A stretch of 33,333 nucleotides of DNA from positions 1 to 33,333 of the forward strand of contig JAEWWD010000080.1 of the NCBI GenBank assembly GCA_023396535.1. Direction: 5' to 3'. The position numbers and the translations under genes are program-made. Source of the DNA: Bacillota bacterium. GTDB lineage: Bacteria; Bacillota; Clostridia; Christensenellales; CAG-138. Under the pieces are notes generated by a model. That model was not told where the DNA came from, did no database searches, and saw nothing but the letters and a program-made list of their open reading frames with translations. The stretch's first letter is position 1. Every line of letters begins with the position of its first letter. Below are positions 9,286 to 23,966 of the stretch, one piece after another.

Positions 9286-9846
9286 TTACTCCTGATTTAA
9301 TTCGTATATCTGCTTCTGCTGCTCCTGACTGAGCGCTTTCTCCGTAACGGCGGCTATCAGGAGTATGCCGACAACGCTCAAACAAAGCCGCGTCAGCATG
9401 AACGCAAGGCCCAGGTTTGCCGCCTCAAACGTCAGCAGGGGTATTTTTGTCGTGGAGAAAGCGCCTATGAATATGAATACGTTGAACAGGCTGCTTCCCT
9501 TTTTCAGCATGACGCCTGCAACCGGAAACGCCACATACAGAGGGCCGGCTGCCGCGGAACCGAGAAGGAACGCGATCAGAACGCCTTTGAGCCCCGAGCC
9601 CTTGCCGGTATATTTTATCATGGTGGCCCGATCCACCCAAACATCCAGCAGCCCGAGCATTACGAATATCGGGGGAACCACGGTCAGCATCTCCACAAAA
9701 TTCTGAAACGTCAGTTTGACGGAATGTATGCCGATATCCGGCAACGCCAGTCCCACCGCTACATTGATAACGAGCAGCGCGATAAACAGCCTGTATCTTT
9801 TCAACAACGTTTTCAAATCCATGGAACTTTTTTTCTTCTCGTTCAT
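9286..9846 (-). CDS. Permease subunit (second half of a split two-gene permease)
   Basis: Starts MNEKKKS at ATG 9846-9844 in an ATGA overlap with the upstream gene. It is hydrophobic. The 313-aa ORF-track version adds an Arg/Gly-rich N-terminus that overlaps the upstream gene. Confidence 0.7.
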   Translation of the reverse strand: MNEKKKSSMDLKTLLKRYRLFIALLVINVAVGLALPDIGIHSVKLTFQNFVEMLTVVPPIFVMLGLLDVWVDRATMIKYTGKGSGLKGVLIAFLLGSAAAGPLYVAFPVAGVMLKKGSSLFNVFIFIGAFSTTKIPLLTFEAANLGLAFMLTRLCLSVVGILLIAAVTEKALSQEQQKQIYELNQE

Positions 9847-10322
9847 CTGAACACCGCCCCCATTACAAACGCCACCGCGAAAGAAAACACAAACGCCGCT
9901 ATATTCCGGGCGATGGGCGCGCGCTTGCCGAACGTCTTCATCTCCAGCGGCAGGGTAACGACCCCCACCATCATCAGCGTGGAAACGAACGCCGCGATCT
10001 GCATATACCCCGCGCCGTTCTTTAGCAGCGCCGCTGCCAGAGGAAACGCCACGAATCCGGGTATCAGCGTGATGGAGCCGATCACGGCGGTCGCCAATAT
10101 CCCCCATAGACCCGAACGCGAGCCGATCAGGCTCGAAATAACCTCCGGACTCAAAACGGACAACGCAAGGCCTATGATGATCAATATAGCTAAAAATTGC
10201 GGCAGCATATTCTCGAAGGATTTCCACGCTTTCTTCAATGCCGCCTTTGTCTTGCCCCGGTCTTTAAAAAACGACACCGCCAGGCCGACGCCCGCGAGCG
10301 CGTACAGGATATAGGTGAACAT
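9843..10322 (-). CDS. Permease subunit (first half of a split two-gene permease)
   Basis: ~159 aa hydrophobic protein starting at ATG 10322 with SD AAGAGG. By recall it resembles the two-component membrane permease pairs of Firmicutes. Confidence 0.7.
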   Translation of the reverse strand: MFTYILYALAGVGLAVSFFKDRGKTKAALKKAWKSFENMLPQFLAILIIIGLALSVLSPEVISSLIGSRSGLWGILATAVIGSITLIPGFVAFPLAAALLKNGAGYMQIAAFVSTLMMVGVVTLPLEMKTFGKRAPIARNIAAFVFSFAVAFVMGAVFR

Positions 10323-15988: not shown

Positions 15989-16406
15989 GAATTCACCCCC
16001 TGTGGTTGCGTGCGCCGGCCGGCGTTCGAAAAAAAAAGCAAGGCCAAAAGACAGTTCGTCTGTCATTTATCCCTCACTCCATGTCTCAGGGCGATCGATA
16101 TGCGGCTGTCAGTTCTTACATTTTTATAGTATCATGGAATCCTCGCAAGTCAATGAAAAAACGAACAAATTGTTTCCGGAAATACGGATTGCTTTATCAT
16201 TCCTTGCTGCAGCTTCCTCCATTACGCAAGGCGCGGTGATGATGCATACGGACAAACTATTTAGTCCGGAACGAGGGGGAGTCGAAACGGAAAAACCGTG
16301 GCTTGCGTTGCACCGCGCCTTGTAAACCTCTTCCATTTCCTCTACAATAAAGGCAGCAGCGTCTCATGGCCCCGCCGACGCCAGTTAATCACCTCAGGAG
16401 GCTGGT

Positions 16407-16991
16407 ATGACACAAAAAGAATGGGAAGCCATACTCTTTCAAAGAGGAATATCCAACTGGTGGTTAAAGCGATATTTCTACGTCAAATATCCTCATATGT
16501 ATTTGGCTGGAGCGCTGCTGATAGCGCTGATTCTTTTATCGCGTATCACATCCATCTCAAACGACAATTATTGGGTTGTTTTTCGCTTCTTGGGCATACT
16601 GGCAATAGGTATTTCAGAGAGTTTCATGAGCCGCCGTTTTTCACACGGAATGCTGGAGCAGGCTTATATCTGGAGCCTTGTACTGTATTTTTCATTTCCG
16701 GTAGCAACTGCATTCTATTTCTCGTTTTATCACTGGCTTATCGTTCTCGGAACCATTATTCTCTTCCTTGGCGCTGTTTTCAACGTGGTCTATCTGCACA
16801 AATACAAGTACCTGTTCCGTACATATTCCAAAGAAGAAATCGCGCTGGCGGTGGAAAGCTATCAGGCCCGTCTGTATACGGAGCTGGACGAAACCGCCGT
16901 ATACTGGAAGGCGAAGCAGGATGCGGCGGAGCAAAAGAAACAGGAACGGCAGGAAAAGCGGGAGCAGCGGCAGAGATTGGGCGACGAATAA
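16407..16991 (+). CDS. Hypothetical membrane protein, paralogue A (4 predicted TM segments plus a charged C-terminal tail)
   Basis: 194 aa with SD AGGAGG. The C-terminal segment LFRTYSKEEIALAVESYQARLYTELDETAVYWKAKQDA is shared with the ORF at 17867-18445. Confidence 0.6.
   Translation: MTQKEWEAILFQRGISNWWLKRYFYVKYPHMYLAGALLIALILLSRITSISNDNYWVVFRFLGILAIGISESFMSRRFSHGMLEQAYIWSLVLYFSFPVATAFYFSFYHWLIVLGTIILFLGAVFNVVYLHKYKYLFRTYSKEEIALAVESYQARLYTELDETAVYWKAKQDAAEQKKQERQEKREQRQRLGDE
16812..16926. repeat. Direct repeat copy 1 (~115 bp, about 92% identical to 18308-18422)
   Basis: Codon-by-codon comparison gives 9 mismatches in 114 nt. Weaker homology with indels continues to about 16975 and 18470. 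Confidence 0.85.
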
Positions 16992-17084
16992 AAAGTACCG
17001 TTTACTTTATTTTTTACATGTTACAATCCTTTTCTGCTATAATAAATCCAATTCACTTTGTACTACTTTATCAGGAGATTGCCG

Positions 17085-17759
17085 ATGAAACTAAACGTTG
17101 TTAATTTAGGCCGCATTGAATATGACAAAGCGTTGGATATACAGGAAAAGCTATTGGCAAAATGCCAAAACCAAGGCCTGGACGATACCCTTTTATTATT
17201 GGAACATCCAGCCGTATTAACCATGGGCATCCGGGCGGAAAAGTCGAATATCTTTCTATCGCAAGAACATCTGCAAGCATACGGCGTGCGTATCTACGAA
17301 GTTAACCGCGGCGGGGATGTTACATACCACGGCCCCGGCCAGATCGTCGGCTATCCGATATTTCATTTATCGCGGCATGGAAAAAGCATAAAAGACTTTG
17401 TGCTGAAGATACAGGAAGTATTCATACGCTTATTGACAAATGAGTACGGAATTAGCCCCCACAGGGAAGATAAAAAGTATATGGGCGTATGGGTCGGCAA
17501 TGATAAGATTACGGCGATCGGTATTGCCGTACAGCATTGGGTTACGATGCATGGTTTCGCTTTTAACGTCAATACCGACTTATCTCATTTCAATTGGATC
17601 AATCCCTGCGGCTTAACCGGAAGAGGGGTTACCTCCCTGCAAAAGCTGACGGGGACGACGCAGGATATGGATCATCTGTATCAATTGACCGCTCAATATT
17701 TTTGTGAGGTTTTTCATATGGAGGAAAACATATGCACAATAGAAAGCCTGATTGGCTGA
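17085..17759 (+). CDS. lipB: Octanoyltransferase (lipoyl(octanoyl) transferase)
   Basis: Starts MKLNVVNLGRIEY at ATG 17085 with SD AGGAG. It has RGGDVTYHGPGQIVGYPI and KITAIGI (catalytic Lys region). Confidence 0.9.
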   Translation: MKLNVVNLGRIEYDKALDIQEKLLAKCQNQGLDDTLLLLEHPAVLTMGIRAEKSNIFLSQEHLQAYGVRIYEVNRGGDVTYHGPGQIVGYPIFHLSRHGKSIKDFVLKIQEVFIRLLTNEYGISPHREDKKYMGVWVGNDKITAIGIAVQHWVTMHGFAFNVNTDLSHFNWINPCGLTGRGVTSLQKLTGTTQDMDHLYQLTAQYFCEVFHMEENICTIESLIG

Positions 17760-17840
17760 AAATCAAAGCATGAGGCAACCCTGTAACCCTTAAAAGAGCT
17801 ATTTTTGAATACCGTTACAAGCACTGCAGCCTGCTCATGC
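17732..17840 (+). pseudogene. Decayed 5' remnant of a second lipA
   Basis: ATG CAC AAT AGA AAG CCT GAT TGG CTG AAA ATC AAA GCA TGA reads MHNRKPDWLKIKA*, matching the LipA N-terminus (intact copy: RKPEWLR). In a shifted frame, LNTV at ~17805 resembles the LHTVCEEA motif. It overlaps the lipB 3' end as in lipB-lipA operons. Confidence 0.45.
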
Positions 17841-17866
17841 GGTTAAGCAATCAATGGAGGCCAGCT

Positions 17867-18445
17867 ATGACTCGAAAAGAACAGGACGCCCTGCTCGCCC
17901 AAAGCGGAATGCCCAATAAGTGGCTGCGATTTTACATGCGCTACCTGCTGCTTTTTCAGATAATATTCGCATTTGTACCCATGGTACTGTTCATCCCACT
18001 TCTATTGCCATTGATATCGGATAACCCATTGCTTCTTTTGCAGTTTACTGTAATATTGACCATGGCCGTGCTGGCAATTTTGTCATACTACTATTCTCTT
18101 CGGGGACTGTCGTTCAAGGCCTATTGTTGGAATCTCGCATATCTTTGCTATATCCCGGCAGCCTACACAGAGTATTTGATAGCTATTGCTTCAAGCCGAT
18201 ATGCACTGAACAGTGTCATATCCATAGGCCTGTTTATCGCCCCCCGGTTGCTTTTGTGTATTCTTTGGATTGTACCCAACATCATATATCTCCGCAAACG
18301 AAGGCAACTGTTCCGTACATATTCCAAAGAGGAAATCGCAGCGGCGGTTGAAAGCTATCAGGCCCGACTGTATATGGAACTGGACGAAACCGCCGCATAC
18401 TGGAAGGCGAAGCAGGATGCGGGAGCAAAGAAACGGGATAAGTAG
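17867..18445 (+). CDS. Hypothetical membrane protein, paralogue B
   Basis: Starts MTRKEQDALLAQSGMPNKWL at ATG 17867 with SD GGAGG. Its N-terminal motif is similar to paralogue A (MTQKEWEAILFQRGISNWWL) and its C-terminal module is nearly identical. Confidence 0.6.
   Translation: MTRKEQDALLAQSGMPNKWLRFYMRYLLLFQIIFAFVPMVLFIPLLLPLISDNPLLLLQFTVILTMAVLAILSYYYSLRGLSFKAYCWNLAYLCYIPAAYTEYLIAIASSRYALNSVISIGLFIAPRLLLCILWIVPNIIYLRKRRQLFRTYSKEEIAAAVESYQARLYMELDETAAYWKAKQDAGAKKRDK
18308..18422. repeat. Direct repeat copy 2 (pairs with 16812-16926)
   Basis: See copy 1. Confidence 0.85.
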
Positions 18446-18518
18446 GAAAAGCTGAAGCAGCGGCGGTAAGGATGAACGTGCCTCCGGCGCATTCGCCGAA
18501 GACACGAATTTTTCGTAA

Positions 18519-18800
18519 TCATCCAAGTTCATTGCCAATCGCATACTCCAATAAAATCTTTGGAATATCCGATGGACTTGACCATCGGGGAAGTGCACCG
18601 GCATATTCCTCAAAGTTTGCCCCATATTTATCAATATGCGAATTTGGTAAATCTATTTTCCTGGAAAACAGAAACTCTCCACCCCGGAAATAGTATATTT
18701 CAAAGTATTCCGCCGTATCAGGCTGAAAGGTGATCCGGACATCTCCATTCTTAAGTATCATCTCCGGGTTGCTTTTGTAAAATTTCATAGGATCATCCAA
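18519..18800 (-). CDS. Hypothetical protein (93 aa)
   Basis: The only open frame in a lower-GC segment. It overlaps the upstream small ORF by 16 nt. No motif was recognised. Confidence 0.3.
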   Translation of the reverse strand: MDDPMKFYKSNPEMILKNGDVRITFQPDTAEYFEIYYFRGGEFLFSRKIDLPNSHIDKYGANFEEYAGALPRWSSPSDIPKILLEYAIGNELG

Positions 18801-19012
18801 CGCCCATCCAATGCCAATGGCCGCTTGTATATATACGCCTGACCTGCGCTGTAGCGGGTGCCCGCAGCAGCGCCGCCTGCCTTTGCCGTGGGTATCTGAA
18901 GAGTGGAATCAGTGACTGAATTTCTTTCACGATACGCGGCTTCCGTCTTAGGTCCCCATATCCCATCTACTGCAACCCCAAGCTCTCGCTGCAACGCCCT
19001 CACTCCCAACAT
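18785..19012 (-). CDS. Small protein with a peptidoglycan-binding-like motif
   Basis: 75 aa. LQRELGVAVDGIWGPKTEAA resembles the PG_binding_1 core (LQ..L....DG.FG..T..A). It may be a fragment. Confidence 0.35.
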   Translation of the reverse strand: MLGVRALQRELGVAVDGIWGPKTEAAYRERNSVTDSTLQIPTAKAGGAAAGTRYSAGQAYIYKRPLALDGRWMIL

Positions 19013-19293
19013 CCTGAATACCGTCAGGGGGCCGAAACCCTTCCAAGTAATAACGCTGTGACATGAATCTTGCCTCCATCCTAAGATTTTTGGAAGTACT
19101 GCCTGTATTCAGCATACATCCTTGTGATGGGGGTTTTCACGCTCAGAAAAATTCTGATTGCTCATAATGTACAAAGAAAGGCGATGAAAATTGCCTGCCG
19201 GAATGGTACAGCCCTGCTACTCGGGGTATGATTGATTTACTGGACAGGGATACTATATACGTATGAAAATGATTTCAACGGGAGGGAACGCCC

Positions 19294-19482
19294 ATGTCAT
19301 CGGAGAAAACGCCGAACAAGCTGATCAACGAAAAATCCCCCTACCTTCTCCAGCACGCCCATAACCCCGTGGACTGGTACCCGTGGGGCGCGGAGGCGTT
19401 TGAGAAAGCGACGACCGAGGACAAGCCCATATTCCTTTCCATAGGATATTCCACCTGCCATTGGTGCCATGTATCTAAATAG
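19294..19482 (+). pseudogene. Truncated 5' fragment (62 codons) of a yyaL-like thioredoxin-domain gene
   Basis: [62 protein letters not shown]. It duplicates residues ~11-60 of the full-length gene at 21936 and terminates 3 codons after the homology ends. Confidence 0.8.
19330..19472. repeat. Left direct repeat bracketing the AT-rich cassette
   Basis: 19330-19445 is identical to 21969-22084 (116 bp). A 7-nt divergent patch follows (atattcc vs ctacgcg), then 20 more identical nt (19453-19472 = 22092-22111). Confidence 0.9.
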
Positions 19483-19819
19483 AACCAAGGAGATGATATG
19501 TAATTAGTAAACCCACCTCTACAAAATATGAATGCACTAAGTGTGAAGCTAATCTCATATAATATTGACCGACGATGGATTATTTGGCGAGCTTAGCTTA
19601 TAATAAGATTGCTAAAAACATACTCATGCTTGTAATGATCAAAATTAAAGAAATCCCGAAAGAAGAAAAAGAATACAGCAGAAACTGGGTAATTGTTGCG
19701 GTTAACAGATTTTAACTATTAGCTGTAGGAACCGAGCGTAAAGAATTTTTCGAGATGTTTGGCCTATTACTTCTAAATATATGGTAACTATTATTATCGC
19801 TTGATACCTAAAAAAAGAC

Positions 19820-20395
19820 ATGAAACGGGGGATAGAAGTGCCTATTTGTCTGGTTGACTTTTTGGAAGAAGCGAAGACACCATTAAAGAACTTCATTAGA
19901 GATCGCGTGTCTAATGAGGAAGACAGTCAAGATATTCTTCAAGATGTTTTTTTGAAACTAATAAGCAACGTGGATAAATTGATCGACACGCAGAAGGTTC
20001 ATGCTTGGATATATAAGACCGCCAGAAATGCAATCATTGACTACTATCGTAAGAATAATAAGAATTTAGACTATAAGAGCCTACCAGAAGAGCTACCGCT
20101 TATTCTGGATGAAGATTTGACGTCAAATAAAGAAATTGCTTCTTGCCTAAAAAATATGACAGAAAAACTTCCGGAAAAATATAAACAGGCCATTAAAATT
20201 ACAGTTTTTGAGAACCATACCCAAAAGGAATATAGTGAGATGGCTGGAATTTCTCTTTCTGGAGCAAAGTCGCGGGTGCAACGCGCAAGGAATATTCTTA
20301 AGGAAATGGTACTAGGGTGCTGCAGCTTAGAGTTTGACGGTCTGGGCAATATAATTAATTACAAAACAAGAAGCCCAAACTGCAAATACTGTTGA
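19820..20395 (+). CDS. ECF-type RNA polymerase sigma factor, SigZ-like, with a Cys-rich C-terminal extension
   Basis: It has region 2 (DILQDVFLKL...WIYKTARNAIIDYYRK) and region 4 (GISLSGAKSRVQRARNILKE), then CCSLEFDGLGNIINYKTRSPNCKYC, as recalled for the SigZ family (TIGR02959). The true start may be GTG 19838, which has GGGGGA upstream. Confidence 0.8.
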   Translation: MKRGIEVPICLVDFLEEAKTPLKNFIRDRVSNEEDSQDILQDVFLKLISNVDKLIDTQKVHAWIYKTARNAIIDYYRKNNKNLDYKSLPEELPLILDEDLTSNKEIASCLKNMTEKLPEKYKQAIKITVFENHTQKEYSEMAGISLSGAKSRVQRARNILKEMVLGCCSLEFDGLGNIINYKTRSPNCKYC

Positions 20396-20430
20396 TAATT
20401 TTGGTTAAAGATGCGTCCTATTTCGCCTAA

Positions 20431-20467
20431 GTACGTCTTTATAGATAGACGTACTTTTTTTGAGAGG
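20431..20467 (+). terminator. Rho-independent terminator between the sigma gene and arsM
   Basis: aagtacgtc-tttatagata-gacgtactt followed by TTTTTT, ending about 10 nt before the arsM SD. Confidence 0.6.
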
Positions 20468-20478
20468 AGGTGTATCTT

Positions 20479-21294
20479 ATGAAAAACAACAAAGAAAATG
20501 TTCGCAACGCGATTCGTAAAAACTATTCAGAAGTTGCCTTAAATAGCTCTGGAGGGCAACGTTGCAGCTGTGGATGTAGTTGTGAAGGAGCACTGATCGA
20601 TAAGCAAGAAGCGTGTGCGAAATTAGGATATTCTGAAGATGATCTATTAAATGCACCGTCAGAAGCCAATATGGGGTTAGGATGCGGTAATCCTATTGCG
20701 ATCGCAGCACTTAAAGAAGGTGAGACTGTCCTTGACCTTGGGTGCGGCGGAGGTCTTGACTGCTTTCTTGCCAGTCGCCGGGTTGGAGAATCGGGTTATG
20801 TAATTGGTGTTGATATGACACCGGATATGATTGCACTTGCAAGAAGCAATGCTGTAAAGAGCGGATATACGAAAGTTGATTTCAGATTAGGTGAAATTGA
20901 GCATTTGCCTGTTGCGGACGAATCAGTGGATGTTATTATTTCTAACTGTGTGATTAACTTATCTTTAGACAAGGAGCAGGTATTTAAAGAGACATATAGG
21001 GCTTTAAAACCTGGTGGGAGACTATCGATATCGGATGTTGTAGCCACATCAATTATTCCCGAAACAATGAGACGAGATCTGCAGCTCGTTGCATGTTGTA
21101 TTGCCGGTGCTGAGCATGTTGATGTCGTAAGAACGATGCTAAAGAATATGGGGTTCAGTGATATTCGCTTGACACCAAAAGAAAACAGCAGGGAGATTAT
21201 AAAGTCATGGGGGTTCGGTAAAAACATTGAAGACTATGTCGCATCGTTTATTATCGAAGCAAAAAAACCGGGAATCAAGGAAGAAAAAGGATAG
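20479..21294 (+). CDS. arsM: Arsenite S-adenosylmethionine methyltransferase
   Basis: ATG 20479 with SD GAGAGGAGG. It has the SAM motif VLDLGCGGG and the three ArsM catalytic-Cys contexts GLGCGNP, SNCVINL and ACCIAGA, plus an N-terminal CSCGCSC cluster. Confidence 0.85.
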   Translation: MKNNKENVRNAIRKNYSEVALNSSGGQRCSCGCSCEGALIDKQEACAKLGYSEDDLLNAPSEANMGLGCGNPIAIAALKEGETVLDLGCGGGLDCFLASRRVGESGYVIGVDMTPDMIALARSNAVKSGYTKVDFRLGEIEHLPVADESVDVIISNCVINLSLDKEQVFKETYRALKPGGRLSISDVVATSIIPETMRRDLQLVACCIAGAEHVDVVRTMLKNMGFSDIRLTPKENSREIIKSWGFGKNIEDYVASFIIEAKKPGIKEEKG

Positions 21295-21744
21295 ATGATT
21301 ATGACAACGCTTAAAATTGAATGGAGGCACCTTGACGTAGAAGGTGATACTTGTGACCGCTGCTATGATACGGGTGAAAATCTTGCAAATGAAGTAAAAA
21401 GATTAAAAAGGGCTCTTGAGCCTCAGGGTATTGTTATAGAGCTTACCGAGACCAAACTTGATGATAATCAAATCCCGCAATCGAATACCGTACTTTTTAA
21501 CGGAGTTCCCATTGAAGACATACTCGATATAGAAGTTTATGAAAACTATTGCGAATCCTGTACTGCTTTACTGGGAAAAGCAACGCATTGCCGGGCGGTT
21601 AAATTTGAAGGTAACGATTACGATGATATCCCCGCTAAAGCAATCCGCCAGGCGACGTATAAAGCTTTAGGAATAGAAGAAAAAAAGGAAGTATCAAAGA
21701 ATTCCGGTTGTTGCTGTAACGCCGATAGCGGCTGTTGTTGCTAA
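21295..21744 (+). CDS. Small Cys-rich protein, DUF2703-like
   Basis: 149 aa that abuts the arsM stop (TAGATG). It has CDRC and CESC pairs and a C-terminal GCCCNADSGCCC tail. The family assignment is from memory only. Confidence 0.55.
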   Translation: MIMTTLKIEWRHLDVEGDTCDRCYDTGENLANEVKRLKRALEPQGIVIELTETKLDDNQIPQSNTVLFNGVPIEDILDIEVYENYCESCTALLGKATHCRAVKFEGNDYDDIPAKAIRQATYKALGIEEKKEVSKNSGCCCNADSGCCC

Positions 21745-21755
21745 CAAATTACAGA

Positions 21756-21846
21756 ATAACAGTAGGCAGCTGGATGCTGCCTACTGTTATTAATAGGCGA
21801 TCAATCTATAAGTGACGAGCGGGGAATCCCGCTCTTTATTTATTCG
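21756..21846 (+). terminator. Two consecutive terminator hairpins at the end of the cassette genes
   Basis: Hairpin 1: ataacagtaggcagc-tggat-gctgcctactgttat (21756-21790). Hairpin 2: gagcggg-gaat-cccgctc followed by TTTATTTATT (21817-21846). Confidence 0.65.
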
Positions 21847-21935
21847 ATTCTGTAATCATTGCAAACAGCCGTTTGATTCCTGCTTCTCAGGGGGAATATA
21901 ACGCTATACGACCCAACAATCAGAAAGGTAAGCCT

Positions 21936-23966
21936 ATGGAAACTAAGCACGAGAACCGTCTTATTCATGAAAAATCCCCCTACCTTCTCCAGCACGCCCA
22001 TAACCCCGTGGACTGGTACCCGTGGGGCGCGGAGGCGTTTGAGAAAGCGACGACCGAGGACAAGCCCATATTCCTTTCCATAGGCTACGCGACCTGCCAT
22101 TGGTGCCATGTCATGGAACGGGAGTCCTTCGAGGATGAAGAGGTTGCCGCGCTGCTCAACGAAGGCTTTGTCTGCATCAAGGTGGACCGCGAGGAGCGGC
22201 CGGACATCGATTCGGTATATATGGACGTCTGTCAGGCGTTCACCGGGCAGGGCGGATGGCCGCTGACCATCGTGATGACGCCCTCGCAAAAGCCGTTTTT
22301 CGCCGCCACGTATATCCCCAAAGAACAAAGGGGGTCTTACCCCGGCATGCTTAGTCTTCTGCCGGCCTTGCTGGAGCTGTGGCGCACGGACAGATCACGC
22401 GCAGAAAAACAGGGCGAGGCGGCGGCAGACTTCTTGCTGGAGCAGGCGCAAAGCAAGCCGCGCGCGCACGCGCCGGACGAAGGGTTGATCCGCGGCGCGG
22501 CACTGCAGCTTGGCCGCTCCTTCGATGCGCAGTACGGCGGGTTTTCAAATGCGCCTAAATTCCCCATGGCGCACATGCTGCTGCTGTTGCTGCGCTACGC
22601 GCGGCGGACGGGCGAACAATCCGCGCTGAAAATGACGGAGGAGACCCTCGTCCACATGTACCGCGGCGGCATGTTCGACCATATCGGCGGCGGGTTTTCC
22701 CGGTATTCCACCGACAGGCGCTGGCTGGTGCCGCATTTTGAAAAAATGCTCTACGACAACGCGCTGCTGCTGTGGGCGTATACCGAGGCGTACGCAGACA
22801 CGGGTAAGGAGCTGTACGGGTTCATCGCAAAACGCGTCATTTCCTACGTACTGCGCGAGCTGCGCGGCGATACGGGCGGCTTTTTCTGCGGGCAGGACGC
22901 GGACAGCGAAGGAGTGGAGGGCAAATACTACCTCTTTACGCCGCAGGATGTCGATACCGTACTGCCAGGATACGGCGGGCATATCTGCGATTGGTTCGGC
23001 ATCACGCAAGCGGGCAATTTTGAGGGCGGCAGCATCCCCAACCTGCTGCACCATAAACAAACGGATGTGCCGGACGCAGAAACGCAGGCGCAGACCGAGC
23101 GGCTGCTCGCGTACAGGGATACGCGCGTAAAGCCCGCCACCGACGACAAGATATTGACGGCATGGAACGCCCTCATGATAGCAGCGCTGTGCAAGGCTTA
23201 TCGCGCGTTCGGCGATGAAACGTATCTTGATGCCGCGCAAAAGGCGCAGGCCTGCATAGAAAAATACCTCGCCAAGCCAAACGGCGACCTGTTTGTCCGC
23301 TACCGGGACGGCCGCGCCGATCACGACGGGCAGCTTGCGGACTACGCGTTTTACGGCGTCGCGTTGCTGGAGCTGTACGCCGCCACGGCAGACATATCCT
23401 TCCTTACGCGCGCGGCCTATATCGCGCGGCGCATGCTCGCGTTGTTCGGCGACGAGGAGGACGGCGGGCTGTTTGCATATTCCGCGGAAGGGGAACAGCT
23501 CATCTCCCGCCCCAAGGAGACCTACGACGGCGCAATGCCCTCCGGCAATTCCGCCGCGGCAATGCTGCTTGTGCGCCTTTCCCGCCTGACGGCCGACCCG
23601 TATTTTATGGAACAGGCGCGGCAACAGCTCGATTTCGTAGCTTCGCACGCGGCGCAAGCGCCCACGGGGCATTGCTTTGCCCTGCTGGCCGTGGCCGAGT
23701 ATGTATCGCCGGGCGCGGAGCTCGTCGTGGTCGGCCGGGACGAGCACGCCTGGAACAATGAACTCCGCTCCATAGTCCCCGTCAACGCGGATACCGCCGT
23801 GCTGGTCAAAACGCCCTCAACAGCCGAAGCGCTGGACTCTCTCGCGCCCTTTACGTCGTCCTATCCCTTCCCCGATCGGGGCACGGCGTATTACGTCTGC
23901 AAAAACGGCGCCTGCCAGGCGCCGGTATTCGACATCAACGCGTGCAAGACGCTGCTTGCACAGTAA
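21936..23966 (+). CDS. Thioredoxin-domain protein of the YyaL/DUF255 family (N-terminal Trx-like domain plus C-terminal alpha/alpha-toroid)
   Basis: 676 aa from ATG 21936 (SD AAAGG). [25 protein letters not shown]...[24 protein letters not shown]...[11 protein letters not shown] is a hallmark of YyaL-like proteins. The first ~11 codons are AT-rich, like the cassette. Confidence 0.9.
21969..22111. repeat. Right direct repeat bracketing the AT-rich cassette
   Basis: See the left repeat (19330-19472). Confidence 0.9.

Follow-up and report, generated by a model that had tools for sequence, protein, structure and literature searches.

The SigZ family of ECF sigma factors is linked here to arsenic-handling genes. 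A small mobile cassette of three genes pairs an orphan SigZ-type sigma factor, which has a conserved cysteine tail, with a predicted arsenic-methylating enzyme (ArsM) and a cysteine-rich DUF2703 protein. Comparison with about 200 other loci suggests that this sigma family is an undescribed switch for arsenic-handling genes, with its own conserved predicted promoter. The wiring of sigma factor, promoter and arsM-DUF2703 is well supported by the comparison, while direct sensing of an arsenical by the cysteine tail is inferred.

Structure of the cassette

The window analyzed here is a stretch of 33,333 nucleotides from a Bacillota bacterium (GenBank assembly GCA_023396535.1, contig JAEWWD010000080.1). 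The cassette occupies positions 19838–21744 on the + strand. An earlier note, made from the sequence alone, described here a SigZ-type ECF sigma factor with a Cys-rich tail, an ArsM and a CCC-tailed DUF2703-like protein. This observation is confirmed, as all three ORFs are present and their identities are as the note described.

The ORF of the sigma factor runs 19820–20395. The likely start is GTG at 19838, which follows GGGGGA and gives 185 aa, matching the gene called on public contigs (P0001). An exact-sequence search with the 191-aa ORF found nothing. The protein contains the Pfam domains Sigma70_r2 and r4_2. It scores 183.1 bits against TIGR02959 SigZ (cut-off 168.65) and 206.6 bits against NF007215 SigZ, just below the cut-off of 212. 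The top structural matches by Foldseek are the ECF sigma factors SigL, SigW, SigH and AlgU, with E-values from 4e-07 (best) to about 1e-05. The C-terminal tail GCCSLEFDGLGNIINYKTRSPNCKYC reads as described in the note. It contains CC161/162 and C182xxC185, and a single Cys (Cys103) is present in the linker (EIASCLKNM). In the AF2 model, which is only moderate (pLDDT 76), the tail forms a beta-hairpin at residues 162–177.

The likely start of arsM is ATG at 20479, with the ribosome-binding site GGAGG at 20466–20470, and the gene ends at 21294 (+). This corresponds to 271 aa, the same length as the gene called on L081 (loci compared here are numbered with L), a second, independently assembled contig from another sample that encodes the identical sigma sequence. 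ArsM scores 343.8 bits against NF008823 arsenite methyltransferase (cut-off 263) and contains a SAM-methyltransferase domain (Methyltransf_31, E = 1.7e-36). When aligned to the CmArsM structures 4FR0 and 4KW7, LGCGNP, SNCVINLS and VACCIAGA match Cys72, Cys174 and Cys224. An N-terminal cluster, CSCGCSC, is also present outside this alignment.

The DUF2703 gene runs 21301–21744 (+), encoding 147 aa, or 149 aa if it starts at 21295. It is read as translationally coupled to arsM. It scores 129.2 bits against PF10865 (cut-off 23.6), covering profile positions 1–119 of 120. It contains CDRC, CESC, a fifth conserved Cys and the tail GCCCNADSGCCC. The AF2 model has a pLDDT of 85, with a confident core (about 90) and a disordered tail (residues 133–149 below 50). 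Assignment of DUF2703 to the thioredoxin-like clan CL0172 has been proposed (PMC3091736). The best PDB matches of the model are weak: Ost6L at E = 0.015, and thioredoxins at E of about 0.3. A profile search found no PDB relative, and an ArsD-like fold was therefore not confirmed.

The region 19764–19837 (+), upstream of sigZ, is conserved. Nucleotide homology (80%) with the same cassette in an unrelated context (L082–L085) begins at 19764. This region presumably holds a housekeeping-type sigZ promoter, although a sigma-70 consensus scan gave no more promoter-like sites than shuffled sequence and did not identify it. No GCGTCC-N15-CGTCT motif is present here. The absence of an autoregulatory motif at sigZ fits post-translational control.

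Between sigZ and arsM, a terminator-like hairpin is located at 20429–20461 (+), with a 10-bp stem (AAGTACGTCT/AGACGTACTT) and a T-run. It was found by a terminator scan, and its RNA fold is –20 kcal/mol (z = –2.6). The stem is kept while the loop changes in L082–L085 and in L001–L003. This hairpin (20429–20456) was first interpreted as a plain terminator that would leave arsM without a promoter. The comparative motif described below rejects this interpretation, because the predicted promoter overlaps the hairpin. Two further terminator hairpins (21755–21791 and 21817–21834) close the cassette at 21755–21834 (+), with an RNA fold of –49 kcal/mol (z = –8.5). A search of 18800–22100 against Rfam found nothing credible. 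The PrrB/RsmZ hit (22 bits against 44) lies over the terminators.

Origin of the cassette

The cassette is foreign to its host. Its GC content is 40%, in a host of 57%. It is flanked by duplicated fragments of a DUF255/YyaL thioredoxin-domain gene (Pfam Thioredox_DsbH). The left copy, at 19294–19482 (+), is a truncated 5' copy of 62 codons. The right copy is the first ~175 nt of the full-length gene at 21936–23966 (+), inside which the host-like GC (about 61%) resumes. The direct repeat is 159 nt long and 93% identical. In it, 118 nt are identical, and the N-terminal leaders differ. The same unit sits next to serine recombinases in other contigs. No near match of the cassette DNA was found in PLSDB plasmids.

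It could be considered that the cassette is an inert passenger in this host, a recently acquired low-GC insertion whose sigma factor does not work productively with the host RNA polymerase. The GC content, the duplicated fragments and the recombinases next to the unit in other contigs would be consistent with this. However, all three ORFs are intact, and the promoter, ribosome-binding site, hairpin and terminators are preserved at about 80% nucleotide identity to the L082 copy with the stem maintained. The identical sigma sequence also occurs on L081. This possibility is very unlikely.

A conserved predicted promoter

An ECF-type promoter motif, T-GCGTCC-TTTT-N10-(C)CGTCT, lies at 20412–20438 (+), between sigZ and arsM. 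In the window, the –35-like element is T-GCGTCC-TATT (20412–20422) and the –10-like element is CGTCT (20434–20438), followed by TTA (to 20441). The –10-like element overlaps the hairpin. This is the only match in the window. A motif-like site at 9687–9713 has 27-nt spacing, lacks the T-tract and lies inside an ORF on the opposite strand, and it was rejected as chance. The predicted promoter is conserved in L082–L085.

Eighty sigZ loci were compared, from Bacillota, Chloroflexota, Nitrospirota, Acidobacteriota, Planctomycetota, Proteobacteria and other phyla. Among them, 40 contain ArsM and 24 contain DUF2703, mostly directly downstream of sigZ. Cultured carriers are Acetobacterium malicum DSM 4132 (arsD-sigZ-arsM, L019), Anaerotalea alkaliphila (L012), Desulfosporosinus meridiei, Heliomicrobium modesticaldum and Anaerobacterium chartisolvens (sigZ then DUF2703, L021). 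Lack of co-occurrence elsewhere had been set beforehand as grounds for rejecting the reading, and the opposite is clearly seen. Under a relaxed pattern, the 26-nt motif occurs 102 times in 856 kb, and 92 of these lie within 1.5 kb of sigZ. About 10 hits by chance overall are estimated by calculation. The same 26-nt geometry occurs at 88 sites in the 80 loci, and positions that were not anchored in the search are also conserved: the first T in 82 of 88 and TTTT in 74–84 of 88. In 62 of the 80 loci, the motif is directly upstream of arsM (34), DUF2703 (20), a cysteine-tailed flavoprotein (6) or an ArsP_1 permease (3). In 20 loci, it is upstream of sigZ itself. The Metabacillus loci (L057 and L060), which are expected to be the closest to Bacillus subtilis SigZ in this set, showed no motif with the pattern used.

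A metagenome scan for the motif that was blind to sigZ returned 120 loci, and 80 of them contain sigZ. Of 113 sites with enough downstream sequence, 94 precede ArsM (38), ArsI/CadI (30; NF041414, 145 bits against a cut-off of 116), DUF2703 (8), ArsP_1 (7), the flavoprotein (2) or sigZ (9). The motif was thus recovered independently, and the proposal in the note that the sigma factor drives methylation is well supported, although it is inferred that SigZ itself reads this promoter.

ArsM-DUF2703 fusion proteins are present in L002 and L029. DUF2703 is also fused to Thioredoxin_3 and to Rdx. DUF2703 genes lie in arsenate-induced ars clusters of Rhodococcus (PMC6514093).

Neighboring genes and the question of the sensor

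The note claimed that no ArsR, anti-sigma factor or arsenite efflux pump is nearby. Across the whole window, no ArsR (HTH_5) protein, anti-sigma factor or ArsB/Acr3/ArsA was found. The one qualification is an ORF at 9286–10227 (–) with a partial match to the ArsP_1 permease (E = 1.2e-10), about 10 kb away and without the promoter motif. Among the 139 nearest other neighbors of the compared loci, the only enriched families are ArsR (9), LMWPc ArsC (7) and ArsD (2), and no anti-sigma family appears. Genes for arsR, arsC or arsD are the nearest neighbors in about 17 of 80 loci. The module is therefore less self-contained in many genomes than the note proposed.

The cysteine features are conserved across the families and are not chance. 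In the sigma factor, CC is present in 80–81 of 81 sequences, the distal Cys in 76 of 81 and the linker Cys in 59 of 81. In a set of 149 sigma factors, CC is present in 147 and distal cysteines were scored as always present. Four tail cysteines could equally form a structural Zn(Cys)4 knuckle, for which the pattern CC...CxxC is typical, and the sigma factor lacks the CxC linker motif that is essential in CorE and CorE2. It is thus possible that SigZ drives arsM-DUF2703 from the conserved promoter but the sensor lies elsewhere. Activity might then be set by the amount of sigma factor, through transcription of sigZ by ArsR or another regulator or through proteolysis, or by an unlinked anti-sigma factor. 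In the nine loci with an ArsR-family gene as the nearest neighbor, ArsR could be the true sensor. The motif upstream of sigZ in 20 of 80 loci would give positive feedback that could amplify a transcriptional input. On the other hand, ArsR is absent from the window and from most loci, and its position and orientation vary. No anti-sigma family is enriched next to sigZ. In the clade of the window, sigZ has no SigZ-type motif and is separated from arsM by the terminator-like hairpin. If the sigma factor were not gated after translation, arsM would be constitutively on. This alternative is considered unlikely.

Another alternative is that the family senses a different or broader thiophilic signal, such as Sb(III), Cd, Hg, Cu/Zn, reactive sulfur or thiol-redox stress. 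The ArsM enzymes here would then methylate other metalloids or thiols, and arsenic would be only one of several inducers. CorE2 responds to Cd/Zn and CorE to Cu, and one residue change switches specificity (PMC4937300). Some members of the predicted regulon belong to families with non-arsenic members. ArsI/CadI includes a cadmium-induced protein, and the nearest NCBIfam models of the ArsP_1 permeases are Cu/Zn or SaoE efflux. The flavoprotein is only distantly ArsO-like (51 bits against a cut-off of 425). The fusions of DUF2703 to redox domains could also be consistent with this. ArsI-linked sigma factors, expected to see MAs(III) through two thiols, might have fewer cysteines than ArsM-linked ones, but no clear difference was found, and ligand specificity cannot be read from the sequence. 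Against this alternative, the most frequent target is a bona fide member of the ArsM subfamily with all As-binding cysteines, and the only enriched neighbors are arsR, arsC and arsD. From established knowledge of these families, ArsM, ArsI and ArsP together form the known set for methylarsenite production, breakdown and efflux. This alternative also appears unlikely.

Relation to known systems

SigZ is classified in ECF238 together with CorE2 of Myxococcus xanthus, whose Cys-rich domain senses Cd/Zn (PMC7826278, PMC4937300). The placement of the window protein in ECF238 (former ECF24 branch) is inferred from its SigZ hit and the statement that B. subtilis SigZ is ECF238 subgroup 9 (PMC7826278). 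The comparison with CorE made in the note is thus stronger than an analogy. As in ECF238, which has a short (~20 aa) C-terminal extension with conserved cysteines and no conserved anti-sigma factor, the window protein has a 25-aa tail with CC...CxxC and no anti-sigma partner.

CorE and CorE2 (former group ECF44) share with this SigZ the lack of an anti-sigma factor, a short cysteine-rich C-terminal extension, cysteine in the linker between sigma2 and sigma4, and neighboring and target genes dealing with toxic soft metals. A one-component, metal-gated mechanism has been shown for CorE2. CorE-like factors are defined by a CxC motif between sigma2 and sigma4.2, essential for activity, and about 6 Cys in 28–38 residues (PMC4937300, PMC8999054). 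The sigma factor here has a single linker Cys, never a CxC in the alignment of 81 sequences, and 4 Cys in 25 residues (CC-N19-CxxC). In this respect, it is not CorE-like in the strict sense. Its predicted regulon is arsenical (ArsM, ArsI/CadI, DUF2703, ArsP_1) rather than Cu or Cd/Zn efflux, and its promoter motif is defined here.

B. subtilis SigZ shares the tail signature CC-x-(L/I)-E-x-D-x-x-G-N-(I/V) and has no anti-sigma factor. It has no known regulon, inducer or phenotype (PMC7826278), while the window protein and most relatives are wired to arsM or DUF2703. OrbS of Burkholderia cenocepacia, an iron-starvation ECF sigma factor, is a precedent for a C-terminal cysteine-rich extension that senses a metal directly (PMC9023288). 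OrbS belongs to a different ECF group with a different ligand and regulon. Metal binding to OrbS reportedly lowers its activity.

In ArsR/SmtB-controlled ars operons, such as arsM-acr3-MPPE-arsR1 of Paraclostridium bifermentans EML (PMC11653729), the output would be the same, arsenical-dependent expression of ArsM and other ars genes. The proposed ligand chemistry is also the same, trivalent As bound by vicinal or neighboring cysteine thiolates. The proposed regulator here is an activating sigma factor that redirects RNA polymerase to a dedicated promoter, not a derepressed HTH repressor. The arsenic metallochaperone ArsD (PF06953) belongs to the thioredoxin-like clan proposed for DUF2703, and has vicinal Cys pairs and Cys-rich C-terminal segments. 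DUF2703-ArsD fusions are reported (PMC3091736), and ArsD sits directly upstream of sigZ in L019 and L022. DUF2703 is a separate Pfam family with two CxxC pairs and no solved structure, and its partner would be ArsM, not the ArsA ATPase.

Literature searches found no paper linking SigZ, or another sigma factor, to arsM, arsenite, DUF2703, arsI or arsP, and no experimental datum connects any SigZ-family member with arsenic. Neither the journal version nor the preprint of the ECF reclassification mentions arsenic or methyltransferases for this group, although its supplementary text may list conserved neighborhoods for ECF238. The main text of Rhodius 2013 does not mention ECF24, ECF44 or SigZ. 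Neither of two large surveys of arsenic genes mentions a sigma factor.

A model for the cassette

The favored explanation, held with moderate confidence, is that the cassette is a horizontally acquired, sigma-factor-based arsenical response unit. In this view, sigZ is transcribed from its own promoter, which is not of the SigZ type, and its transcript ends at the hairpin. The sigma factor would carry an on-board cysteine site made of the linker Cys103, CC161/162 and C182xxC185 on a C-terminal beta-hairpin. Binding of a trivalent arsenical, As(III) or possibly methylarsenite, to these thiolates is proposed to switch the protein into its active form, as metals do for CorE2. RNA polymerase carrying SigZ would then start at the dedicated promoter. 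The start would lie inside the hairpin, expected about 6–10 nt downstream of CGTCT, near 20445–20450, so the terminator could not form in this transcript. arsM and DUF2703 would be expressed as one translationally coupled message. ArsM would methylate As(III). DUF2703, with its weakly thioredoxin-like predicted core, two CxxC pairs and cysteine-rich tail, would work physically with ArsM. It may hand over As(III), as ArsD does, or re-reduce the catalytic disulfide of ArsM.

Sequence and comparison establish the gene identities, the conserved synteny, the conserved promoter motif with its set of downstream genes, the absence of an anti-sigma factor, the conserved cysteines, the gene fusions and the foreign origin. 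It remains inference that SigZ itself reads the promoter, that an arsenical is the signal, that the cysteine tail binds it, that binding activates rather than inhibits, that ArsM methylates As(III), and what DUF2703 does biochemically. The interpretation in the note, a one-component sensor of arsenite or another thiophilic metalloid that drives methylation with DUF2703 as a chaperone or thiol buffer, is therefore partly supported. Every part that could be examined in silico came out in its favor, but not shown are that the sigma factor is itself the sensor, that the ligand is As(III) rather than methylarsenite or another thiophilic species, and the role of DUF2703.

Implications for the SigZ family

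As far as is known, bacterial arsenic detoxification genes are described as controlled by ArsR-family repressors, and arsenite oxidation genes by AioXSR. A sigma factor with an on-board thiol sensor would be a different regulatory logic for arsenic methylation and demethylation, two processes that set arsenic speciation and toxicity in paddy soils, sediments, digesters and the gut. The sigma-promoter pair is compact and probably orthogonal, and is a candidate part for arsenic biosensors. DUF2703 is assigned a concrete partner, ArsM, supported by natural fusions.

The orphan SigZ/ECF24 family is given a testable function, a predicted promoter and a predicted regulon. It can be speculated, tentatively, that the SigZ branch of ECF238, an orphan since the B. 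subtilis genome was sequenced, is a phylum-spanning class of one-component, cysteine-gated sigma factors that sense trivalent arsenicals. They would read a dedicated promoter to switch on arsenic methylation (ArsM), demethylation (ArsI), methylarsenite export (ArsP-type) and a new ArsM partner protein (DUF2703). If so, this would be the first sigma-factor-based arsenic sensor and a second, ArsR-independent, logic for the control of ars genes.

Coding Capacity of the Cassette

Three co-directional ORFs lie where the earlier note placed them, and its observation is real. The first ORF encodes an ECF sigma factor. Its probable start is GTG 19838, preceded by GGGGGA, and this 185-aa form is the one called on public contigs. 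It contains Sigma70_r2 and r4_2 domains, and passes the SigZ equivalog TIGR02959 at 183.1 bits against a cut-off of 168.65. The second ORF (ATG 20479 to 21294) encodes an ArsM, which scores 343.8 bits against NF008823 (cut-off 263). Alignment with the CmArsM structures shows the equivalents of Cys72, Cys174 and Cys224, and an N-terminal CSCGCSC cluster is also present. The third ORF (21301 to 21744) encodes a DUF2703 protein (PF10865, 129 bits) with two CxxC pairs, a fifth conserved Cys and a GCCCNADSGCCC tail.

No ArsR, anti-sigma factor, ArsB, Acr3 or ArsA gene is present anywhere in the window. The only qualification concerns an ORF at 9286-10227 (-), about 10 kb away, whose C-terminal half matches the first half of the ArsP_1 permease profile (PF03773, E = 1.2e-10). 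This ORF has host-like GC and no SigZ-type motif upstream. It could be a half-size or split permease, and it slightly qualifies the claim of the earlier note that no pump is nearby.

Conservation of Cysteines

The cysteines are features of the families. In 28 close and distant homologues, the sigma factor shows invariant C103 in the linker, invariant C161-C162, and nearly invariant C182 and C185. Across 81 sequences, CC is present in 80-81, the first distal Cys in 76, the second distal Cys in 59 (the remainder have CCC or CxC variants), and the linker Cys in 59. Across 149 sequences, CC is present in 147. The AF2 model (pLDDT 76) places the tail as a beta-hairpin directly after the last sigma4 helix. 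A structural zinc site remains possible for these cysteines. In DUF2703, the five core cysteines are invariant, and the tail always holds several cysteines.

Conserved Synteny

A scan of one genome per species returned at least 587 confirmed relatives, counted among the first 600 candidate stretches. The best 80 loci were examined. They originate from Bacillota, Chloroflexota, Nitrospirota, Acidobacteriota, Planctomycetota, Proteobacteria, Calditrichota, Leptospira and others. ArsM is present in 40 and DUF2703 in 24 of them, nearly always immediately next to sigZ. The family is moderately large, with 103 clusters at 50% identity with E <= 1e-30 to the window protein.

The exact arrangement of three genes seen in the window recurs at about 80% nucleotide identity in four contigs (L082-L085), in a completely different context. 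The homology is confined to window 19764-21746. There, the cassette lies within a stretch of genes encoding ArsP_1, ferredoxin, hemerythrin and hybrid-cluster proteins, directly beside large serine recombinases (L082:10249-12807 and L085:7718-9376; Resolvase + Recombinase + Zn_ribbon_recom). This is consistent with carriage on an integrative element.

A Conserved Putative Promoter

Comparison of the intergenic regions downstream of sigZ revealed a shared element, T-GCGTCC-TTTT-N10-(C)CGTCT-nTA, with a fixed 26-nt span. This corresponds to the geometry of an ECF -35/-10 pair. Under a relaxed pattern, it occurs 102 times in the 856 kb of the 80 loci, and 92 of these occurrences lie within 1.5 kb of sigZ. 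Roughly 10 hits in all are estimated by calculation to occur by chance, and the 10 distant hits fit that estimate. Positions that were not anchored in the search are also conserved: the preceding T in 82 of 88 sites, the T-tract in 74-84 of 88, and T28 and A29 in 67 and 57 of 88, respectively.

The genes directly downstream of the motif are arsM (34 loci), DUF2703 (20), sigZ itself (20, mainly in Chloroflexota and Bacilli), a Pyr_redox_3 flavoprotein with a Cys-rich tail (6) and an ArsP_1 permease (3). Sixty-two of the 80 loci have at least one effector target. In the window, the single site is at 20412-20438, 41 nt before the arsM start, and it is conserved in L082-L085.

In 12 loci (L004, L010, L013, L017, L021, L028, L033, L035, L042, L052, L074 and L076), the gene directly after sigZ encodes a second DUF2703 subfamily, 25-30% identical to that of the window. 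It carries its cysteine-rich segment at the N-terminus (for example CCSDCGD...CSCGPGCCD) instead of the C-terminus. In these loci it is often the only target of the SigZ-type promoter, so DUF2703 is an effector in its own right and not only an ArsM accessory. The flavoprotein, 420-477 aa in length and often with CC-rich C-terminal tails, sits behind the motif in loci L027, L065, L066, L077 and L080, divergent from or downstream of sigZ. Its best NCBIfam match is ArsO, but far below the cut-off (51 bits against 425), so it is an uncharacterised relative. Some motif sites (L027:6618-6824, and loci L185 and L154) precede very small, extremely cysteine-rich ORFs. One is 68 aa with CC, CC, CGC and CC motifs, and another is a Cys-rich protein with a 2Fe-2S-like domain. 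These may be metallothionein-like targets.

Search for the Motif Independent of sigZ

As the first survey was anchored on sigZ, the metagenome collection was scanned for the motif alone, with 19 specified bases. At least 120 loci carry the motif. Eighty of these 120 contain a SigZ homologue, even though many contigs are only 1-3 kb long. Of 123 sites, 10 lack room for a downstream gene. Of the other 113, 94 precede ArsM (38), an ArsI/CadI-family VOC metalloenzyme (30), DUF2703 (8), an ArsP_1 permease (7), the flavoprotein (2) or sigZ (9).

The ArsI/CadI class was not in the reference set, and emerged by clustering the remaining genes. It passes NF041414 at 145-147 bits against a cut-off of 116. 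It typically forms a motif-arsI-sigZ operon, as in the metagenome loci L095:4763-5913, L096, L097, L099, L100, L131 and L136, where the enzyme is 139-158 aa with a CC pair and a CC..CC tail. This operon occurs in 30 of the 120 motif-anchored loci and in none of the best 80 genome loci. It is a separate branch of the family tied to demethylation rather than methylation. ArsM makes methylarsenite, ArsI cleaves it and ArsP exports it. The predicted regulon is therefore coherent and centred on trivalent, including methylated, arsenicals, although a broader thiophilic signal remains possible.

Links to Arsenic and between ArsM and DUF2703

Among the 139 nearest other neighbours of the 80 loci, the only recurrent families are ArsR (9), LMWPc-type ArsC (7) and ArsD (2). 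Their positions and orientations vary, and no anti-sigma family appears among them. Control by ArsR in some genomes remains possible.

ArsM and DUF2703 are fused into one polypeptide in two loci, L002:6642-7907 and L029:6595-7833, with both domains well above the Pfam thresholds and with the same promoter motif predicted to drive the fused gene. DUF2703 is also fused to Thioredoxin_3 and to Rdx domains. In the literature, DUF2703 is placed in the thioredoxin-like clan and DUF2703-ArsD fusions are reported (PMC3091736), and a DUF2703 gene is found in the arsenate-induced ars cluster of Rhodococcus (PMC6514093). The DUF2703 model has a confident core and a disordered Cys tail. Neither the fold search nor the profile search found a significant PDB relative.

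Origin of the Cassette

The cassette is foreign to its host. Its GC content is about 40%, against 56-61% in the flanks. It is bracketed by a truncated (62-codon) copy (19294-19482) and a full copy (21936-22111) of the 5' end of a DUF255/YyaL thioredoxin-domain gene. The copies are 100% identical over 118 nt (19330-19447 = 21969-22086), but have different N-terminal leaders and RBS. This looks like insertion or replacement by homologous recombination with DNA from a related donor, not a tandem duplication. An assembly from a second sample contains the same arrangement.

The cassette is part of a larger low-GC stretch (at 16-22 kb of the window, ~16000-21950, 40-47% GC) in a 56-62% GC host. Besides the cassette, this stretch holds lipB (17058-17759), which sits between two paralogous unannotated membrane-protein genes (16407-16991 and 17837-18445). 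These are 38% identical overall, with near-identical C-termini and a 146-nt repeat at 86% identity. This is a second case of an insert between duplicated gene ends. The stretch also holds small reverse ORFs with peptidoglycan-binding motifs (18519-19012).

Local Anatomy and Proposed Mechanism

In the window and in its nearest relatives, sigZ has no SigZ-type motif upstream. A 10-bp hairpin with a T-run at 20429-20461 follows sigZ and overlaps the -10 element. The stem is kept while the loop varies in related cassettes. A transcript starting just downstream of CGTCT would begin inside the hairpin and could not form it. In this view, the hairpin would insulate arsM from sigZ read-through without blocking SigZ-dependent transcription. 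arsM and DUF2703 abut (TAG ATG ATT ATG), and two strong terminators follow them. A weak Rfam PrrB/RsmZ match at 21712-21844 (+), with 22 bits against a gathering score of 44, lies over these two terminator hairpins and is almost certainly a chance match to stacked hairpins.

The most economical reading is that the sigma factor is made constitutively at a low level, is gated after translation through its cysteine site, and then activates arsM-DUF2703. This is the mechanism shown for CorE2, which Casas-Pastor et al. place in the same group, ECF238, as Bacillus subtilis SigZ, and they suggest that the SigZ cysteines may be functional (PMC7826278; PMC4937300). Vicinal CC plus a third thiol is the classical As(III) site of some ArsR proteins and of ArsD. 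In contrast to the gene identities and their arrangement, several parts of this reading are inferred. That SigZ reads the motif rests on position, ECF-like geometry and co-occurrence. That the signal is an arsenical, that the tail binds it, and the role of DUF2703 are likewise inferences. So is the sign of the response; OrbS, another sigma factor with an on-board cysteine sensor, is reportedly inhibited by its metal (PMC9023288).

Relationship to Known Sigma Factors

The protein is a SigZ-family member and, through SigZ, a member of ECF238. It is not a CorE-like factor in the strict (ECF44) sense, as it lacks the essential CxC linker motif and has 4 rather than 6 tail cysteines. A review notes that about 85% of ECF238, the former ECF24 part, lacks the CorE signatures and is uncharacterised (PMC8999054). 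No paper linking SigZ, ECF24 or ECF238 to arsM, arsI or DUF2703 was found, although a bare listing of a methyltransferase or DUF2703 neighbour in the supplementary neighbourhood tables of the ECF classification cannot be excluded. Two large surveys of arsenic genes do not mention sigma factors.

The earlier note had proposed that the sigma factor could be a one-component sensor of arsenite (or another thiophilic metalloid) driving methylation, and this interpretation is supported in part. The sensing mechanism is plausible by homology but remains an inference, while the regulatory wiring is strongly supported by two independent comparative tests. The window protein can be considered as a CorE-type sigma factor with a putative on-board sensor, here with a predicted arsenical regulon and a defined promoter.
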